The notes under the pieces were generated by a model that had not been told where the DNA came from, searched no databases, and saw only the letters and a program-made list of their open reading frames with translations. Of a stretch of 64,000 nt of DNA, positions 3,311 to 55,280 are shown piece after piece (within the stretch, counting starts at the first letter, position 1; each line of letters begins with the position of its first letter). The translations under genes were made by a program, and so were the position numbers. This stretch comes from a plasmid: sequence record NZ_CP019209.1. One strand, written 5' to 3'.

Positions 3311-3936
3311 TTAACAAATATATCTTTGCTTCTTCCGATATTGAAGAGGGCTTAGCCTTCCTAAAGATAACTTAATTCGTTGATTATTATACCAATGAAT
3401 ATAATCATCCAATTTGTTTATAAACTGATTGATTGTTGTATTCTTCCAGTCACGTTGATAAAACATCTCGTTTTTTAATCGTCCAAAGAAACCTTCGCAC
3501 GCTGAATTATCTGGTGAATAACTCTTTTTAGACATAGAGTGAAGCAAGTTGGCTTTGTTCCAATAGTCCAACTAACAATAGCACCATCGTAACAATCGAC
3601 AAGTGGTGATAAGTAGATTTTCCCTGCGAGAATTCTAAATTCAGTAATATCTGTTAACCATTTTTCATTTGGCTTCTTTGCTTTAAAATTCCGATTTAAT
3701 AAATTGGGGTGTGCAGGAGAAATTTCCCCAGCATACGAAGAATACTTTTTTCGTCTAGAAAATTTAACAAATAGATTTTCCTCAGTCATCAATCTACGTA
3801 CAACTTTTTCAGAAAGCTTTTTACCCATATTTTTTAAAGCTTGGTGAATTCTACGGTAACCATACGCACAGAAGTTATGATTGAAAATCGTGATAATTAA
3901 TTTGACGTTCTTTGTAATACTTATCTGGTTTCTCAA
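3311..3936 (-). pseudogene. IS3-family transposase OrfB (DDE integrase core), disrupted by frameshift between 3475..3571
   Basis: Two overlapping ORFs in different frames (153 aa with WLTDITEF block; 86 aa with DNSACEGFFGRLKNE C-terminal block). Confidence 0.65.
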
Positions 3937-4693
3937 GTGCTTGTTTTTGATAAAAATAGCTGCTTTTAGGAAACTGGAGCTGTTGAAGAAGCTCTTTCAA
4001 GGTGAACTGATTTCGTAAGGCATCAATCAATATCGTTTTTTCTTGATTTGATAGACAAAGAAGATTGACGCCTTTTTCTTTTTTTAGCAGTTCAGCCGCT
4101 CCTTCGAGTAATGCTTTTTCGAGCTGTAATTGGTGTACTTGTTTTTGTAAGTCTTCTACTTCCTTTAAAAGTAGCTCTTTTTGTTTTTCCTGATTTTTTA
4201 AAGTCATACACAATGGAAAATCCTTTCCAAGAACCGTGTTTTTCCATTGATATAGAGTAACTCTACTAATTCCTCCAGATTCGGCTAAATTTTTCCTATT
4301 AGTTTGCGGTTTATAGAATTTTTTCAACACAGCTTCTTTTTGATCTTGTGTTAACTTTACCGCACTTTTTCGGAGTTTTCTAGCTCCTGGTGCAAGTTCT
4401 TCACACCGCTGCCGCAAGGACTCTCTATTAGGATAACCAAGCATGCGAATGGTTCGTGCATAACATTGACCATATTCAAAATAATGATTCACCGCTATTC
4501 GTTTTTGTTCTTCAGAATACTTTGATTTTTTTCGGTGCTCCTGATGGAGCTCTCCGGATTCCAAATACTCTTTATACCATTTCCGTAGTGCACCAATCGA
4601 CGGATACCCTAATTCTCGAATGGTTGCAGCATAAGAGCAATCGTATTTTAAAAATAACTGAATTGCCCTTACACGCTCTTTGTGGGAAAACAC
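3875..4693 (-). CDS. IS3-family transposase OrfA (DNA-binding, 272 aa)
   Basis: Two HTH-like segments, coiled-coil LQKQVHQLQLEKALL; directly upstream of DDE orfB. Confidence 0.75.
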   Translation of the reverse strand: MFSHKERVRAIQLFLKYDCSYAATIRELGYPSIGALRKWYKEYLESGELHQEHRKKSKYSEEQKRIAVNHYFEYGQCYARTIRMLGYPNRESLRQRCEELAPGARKLRKSAVKLTQDQKEAVLKKFYKPQTNRKNLAESGGISRVTLYQWKNTVLGKDFPLCMTLKNQEKQKELLLKEVEDLQKQVHQLQLEKALLEGAAELLKKEKGVNLLCLSNQEKTILIDALRNQFTLKELLQQLQFPKSSYFYQKQALEKPDKYYKERQINYHDFQS

Positions 4694-5154: not shown

Positions 5155-5437
5155 ATGGACAGTTTTCAGAGATTGTCACTAGTAAATCAATTTGAGTTAT
5201 TGGCTAAATTTGAGGACCAAAACAGATCTTATTATGAAAGAAAAATCGAAATATTGAGAGAAGGTTACGAGTATCATTATGATGATGAAATTTGGAGTGA
5301 TCTTTCTGAGCCATTTCCGAAAGAAGATTCTCGATTTGTATTAGATGTATTGAACATGTATCGAGATATCAATTTTAGTAAATCAAAGCTAAACTTAGAT
5401 GAAAACCAAATTACTAATTCATACTATACTCATTTCG
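5155..5437 (+). pseudogene. YfbU-family (UPF0304) protein gene, 3' end truncated by IS6-family insertion
   Basis: Translation LVNQFELLAKF...ILREGYEYHY...VLDVLNMYRDI resembles YfbU N-terminal domain; ORF reads into IS6 inverted repeat GGTTCTGTTGCAAAGTTT at 5438. Confidence 0.55.
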
Positions 5438-6245
5438 GTTCTGTTGCAAAGTTTTCCAAAAAATCTATTTTAGTGTAAAATTGAGAAAAAAGACAGAGAG
5501 GACAGAGTAATGAATCATTTTAAAGGCAAACAATTCAAAAAAGACGTCATTATTGTCGCTGTTGGTTACTACCTGCGTTACAATCTAAGCTATCGTGAAG
5601 TTCAGGAATTGTGATATGATCGTGGAATAAATGTTTGTCATACTACGATTTATCGTTGGGTACAAGAGTACAGCAAAGTCCTCTATTATCTTTGGAAGAA
5701 GAAAAATAGACAATCCTTCTATTCATGGAAAATGGACGAAACCTATATCAAAATTAAGGGACGTTGGCATTATCTTTATCGTGCAATTGATGCGGACGGC
5801 TTAACCTTAGATATCTGGTTACGAAAGAAACGGGACACACAAGCAGCCTATGCTTTTCTTAAGCGGTTAGTGAAGCAGTTTGATGAACCGAAGGTTGTAG
5901 TCACAGATAAAGCCCCCTCTATTACAAGTGCCTTTAAGAAACTAAAAGAATACGGCTTTTATCAAGGGACAGAACATCGTACCATTAAATACCTGAATAA
6001 TTTGATTGAACAAGACCATCGTCCAGTAAAGAGACGCAATAAATTCTATCGAAGTTTACGCACTGCCTCTACCACGATTAAAGGCATGGAAGCCATTCGA
6101 GGATTATATAAGAAAACCCGAAAAGAAGGCACTCTCTTCGGGTTTTCGGTCTGTACTGAAATCAAGGTATTATTGGGAATCCCAGCTTAAATCATAGATA
6201 CCGTAAGGGATTTTATTCTTTATTTAAAACTTTGCAACAGAACCC
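5438..6245 (+). mobile_element. IS6-family element, hybrid (5' half identical to ISS1-like copy at 9194, 3' half identical to IS1216 copy at 30446); transposase has premature stop
   Basis: Terminal IRs GGTTCTGTTGCAAAGTTT at both ends; TGA at 5612-5614 where copy 2 has TTA; nucleotide identity switches partner near 5822-5835. Confidence 0.85.
5510..6190 (+). pseudogene. IS6-family transposase with in-frame TGA nonsense codon (5612-5614)
   Basis: MNHFKGKQFKKDVIIVAVGYYLRYNLSYREVQEL then stop; remaining ORF 5732..6190 encodes C-terminal DDE part. Confidence 0.85.
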
Positions 6246-6258
6246 ATTACGAGTCACA

Positions 6259-6313
6259 GTAATTACTTGTAAATACATTATCTCGTGGTATAATGTATTT
6301 ACTAAGTAATTAC
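6259..6313. promoter_or_regulatory. Near-perfect 23-bp inverted repeat (spacer 8 bp) overlapping a TATAAT -10 box; putative autoregulatory operator/promoter of TA operon
   Basis: GTAATTACTTGTAAATACATTAT ... ATAATGTATTTACTAAGTAATTAC; ends ~25 bp before antitoxin start. Confidence 0.6.
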
Positions 6314-6338
6314 ATACTGTTAGAAATGAGGGATTTAA

Positions 6339-6668
6339 ATGATTACAAAAACAAGAAAACAAGGCAATTCAATCATGTTGACAGTACCTAAAGATTTTAA
6401 TGTTCCTAATGGAGTCGAAGTTGAAGCAAAGTTGGTAGAGAATGGTATTCTTTATGAATTTGTTGAACCACAAAAAGAATTTTATGATTTTAGCGAAGAT
6501 ATTTTGTCTGATATAATTGCAGAAGGCTACGATAAAGATGAGATTCTTGTAGAATTTAAGAATAGAAAAAACAAAATGCATTCTTCCTTTAGAGATATTG
6601 CTGAAGATACACTTACTAATTCTAAAGTAATGACTAAAGAGGAGTTGGCAACAGAAATTGGCTTATGA
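6339..6668 (+). CDS. Type II antitoxin, AbrB/MazE (SpoVT-AbrB) fold
   Basis: N-terminal QGNSIMLTVPKDF swapped-hairpin motif; overlaps downstream RelE/ParE-like toxin ORF. Confidence 0.65.
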   Translation: MITKTRKQGNSIMLTVPKDFNVPNGVEVEAKLVENGILYEFVEPQKEFYDFSEDILSDIIAEGYDKDEILVEFKNRKNKMHSSFRDIAEDTLTNSKVMTKEELATEIGL

Positions 6669-6944
6669 AATCGTTCCTTCAAAACATGTCATTAAGTATT
6701 TAAAAAGCTAAAAGAGAAGCCATTGAAAGAAAAATTTTTGAATTTAATTTATGATGAAATTGCGATTGATCCATATAAGGGTGAACAAAAAACTGGGGAT
6801 TTATCAGGTATTTGGTCTAGTGGGTTCAAATATGCGGGCACAACATATAGAGTAGCTTACGAGATTATAGAAAACAAGGTTATTCCAGTATTGTTATGTG
6901 GAACGCATGAAAACTTTTATGAACAGTTGAAAAAATTAATCTAG
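6658..6944 (+). pseudogene. RelE/ParE-family toxin, frameshifted in A5 run (6702-6706)
   Basis: TTG start overlapping antitoxin stop gives MAYEIVPSKHVIKYLKS*; a different frame continues KEKPLKEKFLNLIYDEIAIDPYKGE...YRVAYEIIENKVIPVLLCGTHENFY (RelE/ParE C-terminal signature). One extra A would restore a ~95-aa toxin. Confidence 0.65.
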
Positions 6945-7106
6945 TGATTTGTTGTCGTTCTTAAGAAGGACGGCTTCTTTTTTATCGAAAATCTGATTCG
7001 TCTACATGACTAAAGTCGCGAGTATTCTCTGCTTCTCGATAAATTAAATAACGTCATTACTTTGAGGAAAGCTATAAATCAATATATTTCAGCTTTTCCT
7101 TATTTA

Positions 7107-7189
7107 TGTACTACCTTTTACTTATTAATTATAAGGTAGTACATATATATCTTTTTTTTGGTAGTAACTAAAAATAAATATGTTATAAT
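7107..7189 (+). promoter_or_regulatory. parA promoter region: 11-bp perfect inverted repeat TGTACTACCTT/AAGGTAGTACA plus third half-site GGTAGTAAC, extended -10 TGTTATAAT (7181-7189)
   Basis: Read directly from sequence; located 40-120 bp upstream of parA start. Confidence 0.55.
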
Positions 7190-7229: not shown

Positions 7230-8087
7230 GTGGTAGCGAAGAAATATGTAATCGGTAATTTTAAAGGTGGCGTAGGTAAAAGTACGTGCGCGCAAATGTT
7301 AGGGTTTGAATCAGCAGTTAATGAAGGAAAAAGAACCTTGATAATTGACTTGGATATGCAAGGAAATACTTCTGATGTGATGAACTTAACGCATATGAAC
7401 TTCACTAACGAAGAAGGAGGCGGAGAAGGTGAACCGATTGTTTACGAAAATACTGTGACTGACGTGTTGATAAACAATCTTCCACCTAAAGAGGCTGTCT
7501 ATAAAGTAATCAATAACCTCTATATACTTCCAGCAGACATGTCCTTTGAAATGTATGATGATTGGATCAAAGACCAATATAATGATTCATTATCCCAATT
7601 CAAATATATGAAAGAAAAGCTAGAACCATTATTTGATGAGTTTGACGTCATCTATTTAGATGTCCCACCTTCTATTTCTGTATATAGTAAATCCGCGATG
7701 TACATTGCGGATTGGGCAATCGTCGTCTTACAGACCCAAGTAAAATCGATGAGAAATGCGATGCAATATCTTGAGTATATGGACTTTTTTGTGAAAGAAT
7801 TTGATACAAATTTATATGTTGCTGGTGTTATTCCTTTCATGTTGGAAAGCGGTGACGCAGTAGATCAGGAAATGTATAAACAAGCCCAAGAGATTTATGG
7901 GGAACATTTGATTAAAAATGTTGTACTCAAAAATGCGCGCTTAAAACGATACGACGGATCAGGTATTACGATGGAGAAGACAAAGAAAGGTCTCTTAAAA
8001 CAATGGGATCGCAAAAGCCACGAATTATTTATCAGTATTTTGAAAGAATTGGAAGAACACGAGAATTGGTATGCGGAGGTGGAGTAA
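7230..8087 (+). CDS. parA: ParA/Soj-family partition ATPase
   Basis: Deviant Walker A KGGVGKST near N-terminus; 285 aa; GTG start. Confidence 0.85.
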   Translation: MVAKKYVIGNFKGGVGKSTCAQMLGFESAVNEGKRTLIIDLDMQGNTSDVMNLTHMNFTNEEGGGEGEPIVYENTVTDVLINNLPPKEAVYKVINNLYILPADMSFEMYDDWIKDQYNDSLSQFKYMKEKLEPLFDEFDVIYLDVPPSISVYSKSAMYIADWAIVVLQTQVKSMRNAMQYLEYMDFFVKEFDTNLYVAGVIPFMLESGDAVDQEMYKQAQEIYGEHLIKNVVLKNARLKRYDGSGITMEKTKKGLLKQWDRKSHELFISILKELEEHENWYAEVE

Positions 8088-8636
8088 TTGGCTGACATCA
8101 AAGGACTTGATATTTTTGGGAACAACAAAGGACTCGCCAAAATAAAAAAAGAAGCAGAAGCAAAGAAAAAGCAGCAAGCAATTACACCATCTGAAAATAA
8201 GCAATTAGAAGTGCACCAAGTTCAAGAAATAAAAACTTCCTCCAATGTTGAAAGACAGAGTAGAGGAAGAACAAAAAAAGTTGGCGCACCAATCAGAAAG
8301 TTTGATAAGGTTTATTCCACCAAGCATCCTTTAAAACTGTCGACTTTGTTAAATGCGACTTCCAGAGTTTTAGTAGAAAAGTATGAGACTAATATGACAA
8401 GAGATGAATTGCTTAGAAAAGCTTTAGATGAGTATATTAAACAGAATCTTACGCAAGAAGATAAGCAAGATTTGTTTAATGACGTGGTGAAAGAACTAGA
8501 CTTGTTCAGAGAAAAATATCCAATTGTTCCAGAATTAGATGATCGTGGAGAAATAATAAGAACTACCAGTCAGATAAAACAAGATACCGAAGACTCACTG
8601 CGCAAAGGGTGGGGAATGAATAATAAAGTTAGATAA
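8088..8636 (+). CDS. Putative partition adaptor/centromere-binding protein (parB-like second gene of par operon), lysine-rich
   Basis: Immediately follows parA with no gap; charged 182-aa protein, no recognisable catalytic motif. Confidence 0.45.
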   Translation: MADIKGLDIFGNNKGLAKIKKEAEAKKKQQAITPSENKQLEVHQVQEIKTSSNVERQSRGRTKKVGAPIRKFDKVYSTKHPLKLSTLLNATSRVLVEKYETNMTRDELLRKALDEYIKQNLTQEDKQDLFNDVVKELDLFREKYPIVPELDDRGEIIRTTSQIKQDTEDSLRKGWGMNNKVR

Positions 8637-8640
8637 TAAT

Positions 8641-8693
8641 CAAAGAAGAACTAAGTAACTACCTTTAAACGGTAGTTACTTAGTTCTTCTTTG
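8641..8693. terminator. Perfect 23-bp inverted repeat with 7-nt loop (CAAAGAAGAACTAAGTAACTACC TTTAAAC GGTAGTTACTTAGTTCTTCTTTG); bidirectional terminator and/or par site
   Basis: Read directly; contains GGTAGTTAC motif related to parA upstream half-sites. Confidence 0.6.
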
Positions 8694-11740: not shown

Positions 11741-13064
11741 TAAAATATTTTGTGTAAATAGATATTTAGGGTAGAAAAAAAGAAAGTCCATTCTGTAAAA
11801 TTAAAGTTACCACAACCAAAATTTTATAGGAGGACTTTCTCATGCCCAATTTTACTACAGAAATTATGGAAACACTAATCAATAAAGGTGATTTAGATGA
11901 ATTATTTCGATGTCATTTAGAATTAGCTGTTAATTCATTATTGCAGGCTGAATTAACAGCTTTTCTTGATTATGAAAAATATGATCGTGCTGGGTTCAAT
12001 TCAGGTAATTCCCGTAATGGGAATTATTCACGTTCATTCAGAACAGAGTATGGAGAATTAAATTTGGTGATTCCTAGAGATAGAAATGGTAAGTTTTCTC
12101 AACAAACTTTACCTGCTTATAAAAGAACCAATGACTCTTTAGAAACCACTATTATTCAGCTATTTCAAAAAGGAATTACTATGTCTGAAATCTCTGAATT
12201 GATTGAAAAAATGTACGGGCATCACTATACGCCACAAACCATTTCAAATATGACTAAAATAGTTTCTGAAGATATTATTGCCTTTAAAGAAAGGTCCTTA
12301 GAATCCAGATACTCTGTCATTTTTATGGATGCTACTCACATTCCTTTAAAAAGACAAACTGTTTCAAAAGAAGCAGTTTATATTGTAATTGGCATTCGAT
12401 TAGATGGAACCAAAGAGGTTCTTGGGTTTAGTCTTGCTCCAACTGAATCTGCTTATGTTTGGAAAGAGATTCTTCAAGACCTAAAAGACCGTGGTTTAAA
12501 AGAGGTTTTATCAGTCGTAACTGATGGTTTAAGTGGCATTAACGATAGTATTCATAGTGTTTATCCAAATGCTCAATTTCAACAATGTTGTGTCCATATA
12601 TCTAGAAATATCGCTCATAAGGTTCGTGTTAGTGATCGACAAGAAATCTGTAGCGATTTCAAATTAGTTTATCAAGCAAGTTCAAAAGAAGAAGCAAATA
12701 ATCAAATAAGGTTTATGATAGATAAATGGAAAAAGCAGTATCCACGAGTGGTTAAATTGCTCATGAATCCTGCTATATTAACCTTTTATAATTTCCCTCC
12801 GTCAATCAGAAGAACTATTTATTCAACTAATTTGATTGAAGGTTTTAACAAACAATTAAAGAAATATACCAAAAGAAAAGAGCAATTTCCTAATGAAGAA
12901 TCTCTGGAGAGATTTCTAGTATCTCAATTCAACAACTATAATCAAAAGTTTCTATGCCGAGTTCATAAAGGTTTTAAAGAAATACATGATACATTAGAAT
13001 CAATGTTTTAACTTGATCAACAGAATGGGCTTTTCCATTTACACATAATTCTTGACGCAACCAA
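11741..13064 (+). mobile_element. IS256-family insertion sequence (element 1), boundaries approximate
   Basis: IR GTAAAATATTTTGTGTAAATAG at left, TTTACACATAATTCTTGACGC at right; 389-aa Mutator-type transposase. Confidence 0.75.
11842..13011 (+). CDS. IS256-family transposase
   Basis: Strong similarity to copies at 19245 and 60029 (MxxFTTEIxxTLxNKGDLxELFR...); DDE motifs. Confidence 0.85.
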   Translation: MPNFTTEIMETLINKGDLDELFRCHLELAVNSLLQAELTAFLDYEKYDRAGFNSGNSRNGNYSRSFRTEYGELNLVIPRDRNGKFSQQTLPAYKRTNDSLETTIIQLFQKGITMSEISELIEKMYGHHYTPQTISNMTKIVSEDIIAFKERSLESRYSVIFMDATHIPLKRQTVSKEAVYIVIGIRLDGTKEVLGFSLAPTESAYVWKEILQDLKDRGLKEVLSVVTDGLSGINDSIHSVYPNAQFQQCCVHISRNIAHKVRVSDRQEICSDFKLVYQASSKEEANNQIRFMIDKWKKQYPRVVKLLMNPAILTFYNFPPSIRRTIYSTNLIEGFNKQLKKYTKRKEQFPNEESLERFLVSQFNNYNQKFLCRVHKGFKEIHDTLESMF

Positions 13065-31734: not shown

Positions 31735-32790
<1,056 letters not shown>

Positions 32791-32794
32791 AAAA

Positions 32795-32830
32795 GTAAAC
32801 ATCCAAAAAAGGATGTTTACTTTTTTGTTT
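32795..32830 (+). terminator. Rho-independent terminator GTAAACATCC-AAAAAA-GGATGTTTAC + T6
   Basis: Read directly. Confidence 0.7.
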
Positions 32831-37354: not shown

Positions 37355-37462
37355 AAAGAAGCTGAAAGAGTAAGGAATTTTCAATTCCTTACTCTTTTCT
37401 TAGTTAAATTTAGTAAAAATATTGACAAAACACTTAGTAAACAGTTACATTAGTGTTAACAA

Positions 37463-50149: not shown

Positions 50150-50383
50150 ATGGCAATTAAAGAAAGAAAATTTAGGGAAGTGGGGAACTCAGTAGTATTA
50201 ACTATTTCAAAGGAGTTTCTTAAAGAAAATGGGTTAAATCCCGGAGATACGGTTTTTTTAGATGAAGAAAAACTTCGAGCGGCAATTACAAAAAAACAAG
50301 CCTTATCTGATGAAATTGATTTAGCAATATCTCAAGCATTAACTGAATATGATACTACTTTTAGAGAGCTTGTCGATAAATGA
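50150..50383 (+). CDS. Type II antitoxin, MazE/AbrB (SpoVT-AbrB) family
   Basis: KFREVGNSVVLTISKEF swapped-hairpin motif; RBS AGGAGGGAG. Confidence 0.7.
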   Translation: MAIKERKFREVGNSVVLTISKEFLKENGLNPGDTVFLDEEKLRAAITKKQALSDEIDLAISQALTEYDTTFRELVDK

Positions 50384-50787
50384 GTATTCATTACCTAGAA
50401 GCCAAAGATATTATAAAAATGAATGTAATCCAAATAAAAAAATACTCTCCTAATGAACCCCTTGGTGTAAAGGATGCGAATGCTTTAGAAATGTGTGTAG
50501 GGCAACTTCGAGCCTCAGCTTTTGGTGAAGAGGTTTATCCTTCGATTTATGAAAAAGCAGCTATCCTACTTATACAATTGATAAAGAAACATCCTTTTCA
50601 CAATGCAAATAAACGTACTGCTTTCTTAGCTACTTTTGTCTTTTTGAAAATCAATGGACAGCTTTTAGCTATTGATCAAAAAGATGCTGTAAATTTAGCG
50701 GTATATATTGCTACGTATGATAAGGATTTCGATCAACTAAAATATGAAGTGATCAACACTATAAAGACACATACGCAGCCCATTTAA
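50380..50787 (+). CDS. doc: Doc (death-on-curing) / Fic-family toxin
   Basis: Fic/Doc motif HPFHNANKRTAF; ATGA overlap with antitoxin. Confidence 0.8.
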   Translation: MSIHYLEAKDIIKMNVIQIKKYSPNEPLGVKDANALEMCVGQLRASAFGEEVYPSIYEKAAILLIQLIKKHPFHNANKRTAFLATFVFLKINGQLLAIDQKDAVNLAVYIATYDKDFDQLKYEVINTIKTHTQPI

Positions 50788-54783: not shown

Positions 54784-55280
54784 CTTTAACTGTTAGCTCC
54801 TGCCGAAGATCGTCACATCCGAGGAGGCTCATTGTCAAGGACAATCGGAATAGCATACGGAAAGAAGTTCTGCACCTTATAAAATTTGTCAAAAAAACTG
54901 TTGCCATTCCATACATCTTTCAGCATTTTACTATATTTGGTATATAGTGCTAAGGTTCATATTCGATTGACAAGAGAATATAAATTGATCTATTTCTATT
55001 TCCTAAGTTGAGTAAACATAACTTTGCCCTTTATAAATATCTTCCCTCTCTCTCTTCTCTCTATATTTTATATTTGAATAATCATATCAAGGTATTCCAA
55101 CGAAATGCCAATGGATTTCGAAGCTTTTATAACTTTAAATTACGGATCATGATTTGGCATGGGGAATCATTACTAATAAAATAAAAAAATGAACAGAAAG
55201 AAAACAGTTCTTTCTGTTCACCAACTTCATTTGACAAATATCCTATTTAGCTTATTTTATAGCTTTTTATATACACTTTT

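Follow-up and report, generated by a model that had tools for sequence, protein, structure and literature searches.

A one-base homopolymer deletion in the toxin gene of an Enterococcus plasmid toxin-antitoxin module, with antitoxin and predicted operator retained

A type II toxin-antitoxin (TA) module was analysed on a stretch of 64,000 nucleotides of plasmid DNA (sequence record NZ_CP019209.1), referred to below as the window. In the toxin gene of this module, a run of six adenines (A6) has been shortened to five (A5), so that only a 17-codon stub can be read, while the antitoxin gene upstream is intact. The one-base deletion is an ordinary toxin pseudogenisation that leaves an orphan antitoxin and putative autorepressor together with its predicted operator. 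As to the history of the locus, it is considered probable that it was a type II addiction module belonging to the maintenance block of pLG1-type plasmids, and that the toxin was lost via a slippage deletion. The features of the module, in window positions, are as follows.

6259..6313, no strand assigned: putative operator, four 8-bp self-complementary boxes forming a 23/24-nt inverted repeat
6267..6294, + strand: putative sigma-70-type promoter, with -35 TTGTAA at 6267-6272, a 16-nt spacer and a TG-extended -10 TATAAT at 6289-6294 (10/12 consensus matches)
6339..6668, + strand: antitoxin/autorepressor gene, 109 amino acids (aa), intact, its N-terminal region resembling the DNA-binding part of AbrB/MazE proteins and its C-terminal half modelled as helical
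6658..6712, + strand: 5' stub of the toxin gene, TTG start at 6658, 17 codons, TAA at 6710-6712; the start matches that of the annotated intact coding sequence (CDS)
6702..6706, + strand: A5 homopolymer, site of the 1-nt deletion; A6 in intact alleles, where it encodes Lys16-Lys17
6707..6944, + strand: out-of-frame remainder of the toxin gene, residues 18-95 of a RelE-like toxin, including a 73-aa open reading frame (ORF) at 6723-6944
6954..6984, + strand: intrinsic-terminator-like hairpin (6954-6974) and T tract closing the operon, upstream of parA (7230-8087)

The toxin lesion and the frequency of the A5 allele

The original prediction, made from the sequence of the window, had described an intact antitoxin followed by a toxin split between frames at the A5 run, and both statements were confirmed. 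The stub translates as LAYEIVPSKHVIKYLKS before it meets the TAA codon, and the addition of one A to the run gives a 95-aa ORF ending at 6944. The restored translation agrees with the product of the toxin CDS annotated in intact alleles, WP_002300557.1. In one such allele, on NZ_CP027513.1, the annotation names the first gene 'AbrB family transcriptional regulator' (WP_002292678.1) and the second 'type II toxin-antitoxin system RelE/ParE family toxin' (WP_002300557.1, 288 nt, with the same TTG start), and the only difference from the window over the aligned 831 nt is A5 versus A6. The region between 6100 and 7200 is a compact operon with a predicted promoter, the 109-aa ORF, an overlapping second gene and a terminator-like hairpin. 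This is the layout of a type II TA system, with two small co-oriented genes, the antitoxin upstream, and an overlap of 11 nt with the toxin start. The intact toxin frame that such a system would also have is absent here, where the product is 17 aa long, and is present in 287 other plasmid records.

The frequency of the two alleles was surveyed in PLSDB with an exact 87-nt query centred on the A5 run and the matching 88-nt query for A6. Such a comparison had been proposed with the original prediction, and it found both alleles: among ~355 Enterococcus plasmid records with ~450 copies of the module, exact A5 occurs in 90 records and exact A6 in 287, so that ~22 records must carry both. The A5 records span many countries, hosts and laboratories. 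An exact-sequence look-up was also made in a collection of 15 billion proteins drawn from NCBI, ENA, MGnify and Logan. The 73-aa ORF that is called from the A5 allele lies there on at least 1000 contigs, short-read assemblies included, and the intact 95-aa protein is equally frequent. Taken together, the plasmid records and the contigs establish A5 as a genuine, heritable and common allele.

These counts effectively refute, as a general explanation, the suggestion that the run reflects a sequencing error in a poly-A tract. For the isolate itself, an assembly error over a plasmid that really has A6 and an intact toxin would be in keeping with the fact that homopolymer indels are the commonest long-read error, and neighbouring homopolymers do differ by one base among otherwise identical records. 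However, A5 and the same upstream insertion sequence (IS) junction are found in 6 other complete plasmids at 100% identity over 801 nt, the allele is seen in 90 records overall and in contigs from several sources, and it is tied to a specific single-nucleotide polymorphism (SNP) haplotype. An error at this site is therefore barely credible.

At least one of those 6 plasmids, NZ_CP058895.1, also has an intact A6 block. This plasmid holds the maintenance block twice. The complete copy at 85.5-88.4 kb (L037 in our numbering of loci) has axe-txe, the antitoxin, an intact toxin, parA and a parB-like gene, and the second copy, of the window type with the IS6 junction and A5, lies 67 kb away at 154.7-155.5 kb. 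In PLSDB as a whole, ~94 records have two copies of the module.

Profile searches with the restored toxin gave a match to Pfam PF15781, 'ParE-like_toxin', with 101.7 bits (cut-off 28), an E value of 2e-29 and coverage of profile positions 1-87/87. The score for PF05016 (ParE) was 16.8 bits, below the cut-off of 23, and that for TIGR02385 RelE_StbE was borderline, at 27.9 bits against a cut-off of 27.9. A sequence search of the PDB returned just a marginal match to YoeB (E 0.12). An AlphaFold model of the restored protein (pLDDT 86.9) has a strand at residues 4-5, helices at 9-17 and 21-35, three strands, and a helix at 84-94. The best PDB matches of this model are Mycobacterium tuberculosis RelE2 and RelE1, Escherichia coli RelE and Thermus thermophilus RelE, with TM scores of 0.69-0.84 and E values of 2e-4 to 1e-3, whereas ParE structures reach a TM score of only ~0.5. 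The modelled fold thus places the PF15781 toxin in the RelE structural class. The earlier label 'RelE/ParE-like' stands at the superfamily level, but its ParE-like part does not, the predicted fold being RelE-like. In a 2025 survey (PMC11980606), the target of PF15781 is given as unknown and the family clusters near ribosome-dependent mRNases.

Homologues of the toxin are confined to Enterococcus, Vagococcus, Carnobacterium and related genera, and the full-length ones are ~95 aa long. In an alignment of 38 sequences, M1, K16, K17, L49 and K92 are invariant, and K19 and K21 nearly so. The invariance of K16 and K17 indicates that the Lys-Lys pair encoded by the A run, and the whole N-terminal segment with it, are conserved parts of the protein. 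The frame is lost at codon 17, where helix 1 of the model ends, and the lost segment holds residues that are invariant in the family, in agreement with toxin inactivation, the first of the explanations offered earlier.

The 73-aa ORF that begins at the TTG at 6723 was weighed as a functional shorter toxin, perhaps translated by reinitiation after the stub stop 11 nt upstream. Its sequence still covers the core beta sheet and the helix at the C-terminus (PF15781 positions 19-87 only, E 6e-24), and some annotation pipelines label it 'addiction module toxin RelE'. Against this, the aligned homologues of the full-length class are ~95 aa long and share the N-terminal residues named above. In the model, the 22 residues that the ORF lacks contain strand 1, helix 1 and the beginning of helix 2, which argues that it is not a complete toxin, as does the coding of the invariant Lys-Lys by the A run. 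A convincing ribosome-binding site was not found before the TTG at 6723, and the copies of RefSeq records in PLSDB have no CDS at this ORF. It is thus hardly conceivable that the downstream ORF alone is the full toxin, an outcome that would have overturned the split-gene description.

A further explanation is recoding, by which the A5 allele would still yield small amounts of wild-type toxin, through -1 ribosomal frameshifting at the heptamer U_UUA_AAA (6699-6705) or through slippage during transcription. The DNA heptamer T_TTA_AAA fits the X_XXY_YYZ pattern in the zero frame, the zero-frame stop follows two codons on, either route would restore the exact wild-type sequence YLKKLKE, and the downstream frame is fully open and identical to that of the intact allele. 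However, an open downstream frame is expected of any recent mutation, and the heptamer was already present in the in-frame A6 ancestor, which means that no feature has arisen for the sake of recoding. No stimulatory structure was predicted: from the site onward, 96 nt have a folding energy of -6.8 kcal/mol, weaker than the shuffle mean of -9.3 (z +1.09). A Shine-Dalgarno-like stimulator is not visible upstream. Five A's are also too few for efficient slippage by RNA polymerase.

Homologous loci bear on the same question. The set consisted of 15 related loci, drawn from other species and genera, and an Enterococcus hirae plasmid. An in-frame toxin of ~95 aa is encoded in 12 of the 15 loci, with Lys-Lys coming from an A run of up to 7 bases, and A6 is taken from this, and from the invariance of K16 and K17, to be the ancestral state. 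A single frame in these loci also counts against recoding, which is regarded as highly improbable. In the other 3 loci (L031, Enterococcus sp. AZ194; L032, a Vagococcus metagenome-assembled genome; L034, Enterococcus villorum), the toxin and/or the antitoxin has decayed. Among the lesions in these three are the deletion of a toxin N-terminus, a frameshift in the antitoxin and the loss of a start codon.

Predicted promoter, operator and antitoxin

The predicted promoter of the operon lies within an arrangement of short palindromes. The four boxes are GTAATTAC at 6259-6266, GTAAATAC at 6269-6276, GTATTTAC at 6295-6302 and GTAATTAC again at 6306-6313, and the arms of the inverted repeat that they form are 6259-6281 and 6290-6313. 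The inner repeat is perfect at 13/13 positions (6269-6281 / 6290-6302, with an 8-nt loop). The outer one is perfect at 10/10 positions (6259-6268 / 6304-6313) and is offset by one extra T at 6303. A perfect 13-bp repeat with a loop of at most 12 nt is expected ~0.07 times per 64 kb of first-order Markov sequence, and GTAATTAC is found three times in the whole 64 kb, two of them in the putative operator. The original prediction had reported a near-perfect inverted repeat overlapping the -10 box. The repeat is real, but it overlaps the -35 box too, and it is better described as four 8-bp boxes.

Support for an operator comes from the homologues, 13 of which, all distant, were scanned for boxes. 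The surroundings diverge in these loci, yet the octamer GTAATTAC or variants with one or two mismatches recur. A pair of boxes with 11-bp spacing stands directly downstream of the -10 in 13/13 distant loci, and a second pair, upstream and with 10-bp spacing, in about half of them. The outer boxes of L035, the most distant locus with four boxes, have changed jointly to GTACATAC and GTATGTAC, so that the dyad is kept. The box conservation supports the operator reading made earlier, and comparative support is good for the boxes as a predicted binding site of the antitoxin.

The possibility that the palindrome is mainly a terminator of the neighbouring txe gene was considered and rejected. A terminator/attenuator hairpin has been described downstream of txe in pRUM (PMC3760812, Boss et al.). 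However, the 99-nt promoter/palindrome segment is found only with the AbrB-type module, in the same ~355 PLSDB records, from which it follows that it is part of this operon and not a general feature of axe-txe cassettes. The boxes are also present in homologues that have no txe upstream. A dual role of the palindrome, as operator and as txe terminator, is possible.

The antitoxin is the same protein, WP_002292678.1, in all 20 PLSDB copies that were sampled. No Pfam match passed the threshold, and a sequence search of the PDB with the antitoxin found nothing. Residues 4-38 match positions 1-35/68 of the profile NF047400 MazE_PemI (E 2e-9). The monomer model is of low confidence, its N-terminus included, with beta strands within residues 6-42 and helices within 52-107, and the top four Foldseek matches to it are all MazE (E 0.3-0.7, not significant). 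From profile and model, the module appears to pair an AbrB/MazE-like antitoxin with a toxin of predicted RelE fold.

From these features, a scheme for the intact module can be proposed. The sigma-70 promoter would drive a bicistronic mRNA, and the AbrB/MazE-like N-terminus of the antitoxin would bind the four GTAATTAC-type boxes located around the -35 and -10, leading to autorepression. The 95-aa toxin would be made from the weak TTG start overlapping the antitoxin stop, would have a RelE fold and would probably cleave ribosome-bound mRNA. The change from A6 to A5 in the codons for Lys16-Lys17, probably by replication slippage, shifts the frame and leaves only the 17-residue peptide, and a module with A5 would be unable to kill plasmid-free segregants. 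The orphan antitoxin may still neutralise the identical toxin from an intact second copy or from a competing plasmid.

Origin of the A5 allele and its plasmid surroundings

Six complete Enterococcus faecium plasmids are 100% identical to the 801-nt region, hundreds more reach 99.9%, and matches in 356 PLSDB records span 80% or more of its length. The carrier records that were examined are mostly plasmids of 120-380 kb typed as rep_cluster_893, MOBP and MPF_T, which makes them pLG1-type megaplasmids. Ancestrally, the genes run from an MFS transporter gene through axe (Phd/YefM), txe (YoeB), the AbrB-type module and parA to a parB-like gene. To follow the A5 allele, 20 copies with their flanks were compared, and a spread sample of 60 of 370 records was added.

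Most A5 copies share one background. Intact axe-txe lies upstream in 9 of the 11 sampled A5 copies, T is found at position 7712 in 9 of 10 scored A5 loci, and all 13 A5 copies with axe-txe in the spread sample are 100% identical over 1225 nt. The allele would accordingly have arisen once or a few times and would have spread with the plasmid lineage and by recombination. The first 20 loci, which were hand-picked, gave the impression that the two TA modules are lost in alternation. This was rejected on the 60-record sample, in which both modules are intact in 15 rows and axe-txe stands beside A5 in 13.

Several points weigh against the account given so far. Single-base homopolymer differences occur nearby in several records (at 6870, 6978, 7093 and 7152), and hence an assembly error may lie behind some of the A5 calls. 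A strictly single origin sits poorly with the existence of all four combinations of A5 or A6 with T or C at 7712 (L019 is A5/C, L001 is A6/T), a failure of the four-gamete test, and with the presence of A5 in three upstream contexts: intact axe-txe, an IS junction at -94 and an IS junction at ~-220 (CP066206.1). The antitoxin resembles MazE/PemI proteins of the AbrB-SpoVT fold but falls short of membership, with a score of 37.1 bits under a cut-off of 50 and fold matches that are not significant. Finally, whereas the lesion, its frequency among plasmids, the family and fold assignments and the conservation of the boxes are shown by the data, we infer that the promoter is active, that the antitoxin binds the operator, that the toxin is an RNase and that the antitoxin keeps a residual role (its expression and its neutralising effect).

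The conflicts of haplotype and context mean that either recombination or recurrent slippage must have happened. The IS6 junction at -94, which is that of the window, goes with A5 in the window and in L002 and with A6 in L010 and others, on differing downstream SNP haplotypes, and CP066206.1 has A5 with the ~-220 junction that is otherwise tied to A6. One junction on two SNP haplotypes makes recombination necessary in any case, and recombination could also have moved A5. We conclude that the allele arose once or a small number of times, and nothing speaks positively for a regulated switch.

Recurrent slippage is the core of the phase-variation explanation, in which changes between A5 and A6 at a useful rate would toggle addiction across the plasmid population. 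Its attraction is that the lesion lies in a homopolymer, that the A runs of homologues reach 7 bases at the same codons, that all four combinations with the SNP at 7712 exist, and that each of the three upstream contexts of A5 also has A6. Contingency loci typically use tracts of ~8 or more, however, and the tract here has merely 5-6 nt. The large majority of A5 copies are the one haplotype identical over 1225 nt, the composition of the A run is explained by coding for the invariant Lys-Lys, and recombination accounts equally well for the context conflicts. A second null allele, moreover, is a nonsense mutation and so an irreversible decay. Phase variation is therefore thought improbable. The phase-variable or slippage-regulated toxin suggested earlier has found no support in the tract length, the haplotypes, the RNA folding or the single-frame homologues.

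The second null allele is found on NZ_CP047327.1, NZ_CP072885.1 and NZ_CP129888.1. The change G6861T converts Glu69 to TAG and leaves a 68-aa product. The same copies have a 2-bp deletion at 6268-6269, in the operator and -35, and G6331A in the antitoxin Shine-Dalgarno sequence. They come from an animal (China), river water (Switzerland) and Argentine milk, and from E. faecium and Enterococcus lactis.

A selective advantage of toxin loss was also considered, in which the orphan antitoxin would protect the host against this toxin when a co-resident or competing megaplasmid encodes it. The concept of anti-addiction by orphan antitoxins is an established one in the literature. It would fit the single antitoxin accession in 20/20 sampled copies beside a toxin hit independently at least twice, the null allele in about one quarter of the plasmids, and the co-occurrence of null and intact copies on some of them. 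However, the region is more than 99% identical among the records, so that antitoxin conservation gives no signal of selection, and neutral decay, permitted by the adjacent axe-txe or a second copy, accounts for the data just as well. The promoter/operator and Shine-Dalgarno mutations of the second null allele also suggest decay of the whole module. A selected orphan antitoxin is considered rather unlikely. A more elaborate proposal joins these ideas. Here A5 would be a tuned, leaky or reversible addiction state, with -1 slippage or A5/A6 slippage giving trace wild-type toxin, and the antitoxin-operator unit would be an anti-addiction device for coexisting with, or displacing, relatives that have an intact toxin. 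This proposal is judged very improbable. Decay of the toxin gene by slippage, followed by spread of the null allele, is the reading that we prefer.

The window has lost the upstream axe-txe as well. The features that surround the module are listed here.

5436..6244, + strand: IS6-family (IS1216/ISS1-like) element with a broken transposase (fragments 5510-5614 and 5732-6190); the right terminal inverted repeat ...TTTGCAACAGAACC ends at 6244
6245..6262, + strand: 3' remnant of txe (YoeB-family toxin), CAT TAC GAG TCA CAG TAA, recognised by alignment with axe-txe plasmids
7230-8087: parA, following the terminator-like hairpin

The IS6 element has a DDE_Tnp_IS240 domain (E 5e-40) and is 88-96% identical to other IS6 copies in related plasmids. 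Its insertion, or an adjacent deletion, removed axe-txe from the window and left the last 18 nt, with the txe stop codon (6260-6262) inside the first operator box. Both axe-txe and the AbrB-type module are thus dead here. Right-end junctions of IS6-family elements cut txe at no fewer than 5 sequence-verified positions, at -94, -136, -153, -189 and -220 from the antitoxin ATG. These right ends (6244/6245 in the window; L001, L013, L014 and L015) have one orientation and all stop short of the operator, and more truncation points are seen in the 60-record sample. The pattern suggests repeated IS6-mediated adjacent deletions that erase axe-txe and spare the AbrB-type module and the par operon.

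Other parts of the window were inspected as well. The first 10 kb is colinear with NZ_CP071959.1 with one difference, T8 in the window and T7 in that record at 7152, and the two diverge past an IS element. This T8 run (7152-7159) is intergenic, before parA, and is T7 in otherwise identical copies (L002/L003, L016, L019 and L020), which is either a true polymorphism or homopolymer sequencing noise in the T7 records. The 182-aa gene that follows parA at 8088-8636 occupies the position of a parB or centromere-binding gene and has no Pfam match at E <=1e-3. The stretch of 3.1-6.9 kb is a patch of gene fragments on the margin of the plasmid backbone. The patch includes an IS3-family remnant at 3475-4693 on the - strand, with HTH_Tnp_1/HTH_21 domains and the first half of an rve domain only, and a truncated YfbU-domain gene at 5155-5478 (profile positions 3-94/166).

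A second copy of the module was not found within the 64-kb window, where the sole related match is the N-terminus of a different AbrB-type antitoxin at 50150. That antitoxin belongs to a seemingly intact, unrelated TA pair at 50150-50787, in which a 77-aa AbrB/MazE-type protein (50150-50383) overlaps a 135-aa Fic/Doc-family toxin (50380-50787, motif HPFHNANKR). The window has five further perfect inverted repeats, 13 bp or longer and with short loops, at 8649-8685, 11925-11961, 32789-32826, 37365-37397 and 55190-55220, which are probably terminators or IS ends. Outside Enterococcus, a complete axe-txe with the A6 module was seen at 99.9% identity on CP064340.1 (H237), a 240-kb plasmid recorded as Lactococcus lactis from snakehead fish, which reflects either inter-genus transfer or a mislabelled host.

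Significance and comparison with known systems

The literature on TA erosion and orphan antitoxins is extensive, and a search of it found no paper on this particular module, on its frameshift allele or on experiments with the module. The pLG1-type megaplasmids of E. faecium carry vancomycin resistance and carbohydrate-utilisation traits, and about one quarter of those sequenced have a non-functional copy. With null alleles this common, typing of TA systems by PCR or gene presence overstates addiction capacity. The new points are modest: the RelE-fold assignment, the predicted GTAATTAC operator with 10-11-bp spacing, the null frequency of ~25%, the independent nonsense allele and the repeated IS6 truncations of txe. 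Together they show that two neighbouring TA modules have eroded repeatedly and independently, through IS6 truncations, a frameshift and a nonsense mutation, beside a conserved partition operon. The significance is modest, and a specialist in TA systems or plasmids would not be surprised.

Among known systems, the RelBE type (E. coli RelE; M. tuberculosis RelE1/RelE2) shares with this module a small antitoxin-toxin operon with overlapping genes and a palindromic operator, predicted in the present case, in the promoter. The model of the restored toxin also superposes best on RelE (TM 0.69-0.84), and its sequence reaches the RelE_StbE cut-off. The antitoxin differs, having an AbrB/MazE-like N-terminus instead of the ribbon-helix-helix of RelB. 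The toxin, a pseudogene here, is only 16-26% identical to solved RelE proteins, and its catalysis and ribosome dependence are predicted at most.

The PrlF-YhaV system pairs an antitoxin of AbrB/SpoVT fold with a toxin of the RelE superfamily. The module described here appears to follow the same mix-and-match, with an AbrB-type swapped-hairpin antitoxin and a RelE-fold toxin, a likeness of architecture, with no sequence relationship found here: YhaV belongs to PF11663, whereas the toxin here belongs to PF15781. The likeness to MazE/PemI (MazEF, Kis-Kid) lies in the N-terminal 35 residues of the antitoxin, in its top structural matches and in a predicted operator built of repeated short palindromic boxes. 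It ends with the sub-cut-off profile score, an unrelated C-terminal half and a partner toxin that is RelE-like and not MazF.

Axe-Txe, of the YefM-YoeB family (PMC3760812), is the ancestral upstream neighbour, with a role in plasmid maintenance and a toxin of the RelE/YoeB superfamily. It is a separate module, however, with a Phd/YefM antitoxin and TGTACA operator repeats. ParDE, with its gyrase-poisoning ParE, belongs to the same BECR/RelE-ParE superfamily, and the Pfam name 'ParE-like toxin' points to it, but the PF05016 score is below threshold, the TM score to ParE is ~0.5, and PF15781 clusters with mRNases (PMC11980606).

The closest parallel to the fate of the module is in surveys of orphan antitoxins and eroded TA loci (PMC7192599, PMC10790755, PMC13617665), which likewise report toxin loss by point lesions with antitoxin and promoter kept, and frequent independent losses. 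Those surveys mainly concern chromosomal loci of Proteobacteria, whereas the case here is a maintenance block of Enterococcus plasmids in which one null allele has reached ~25%.

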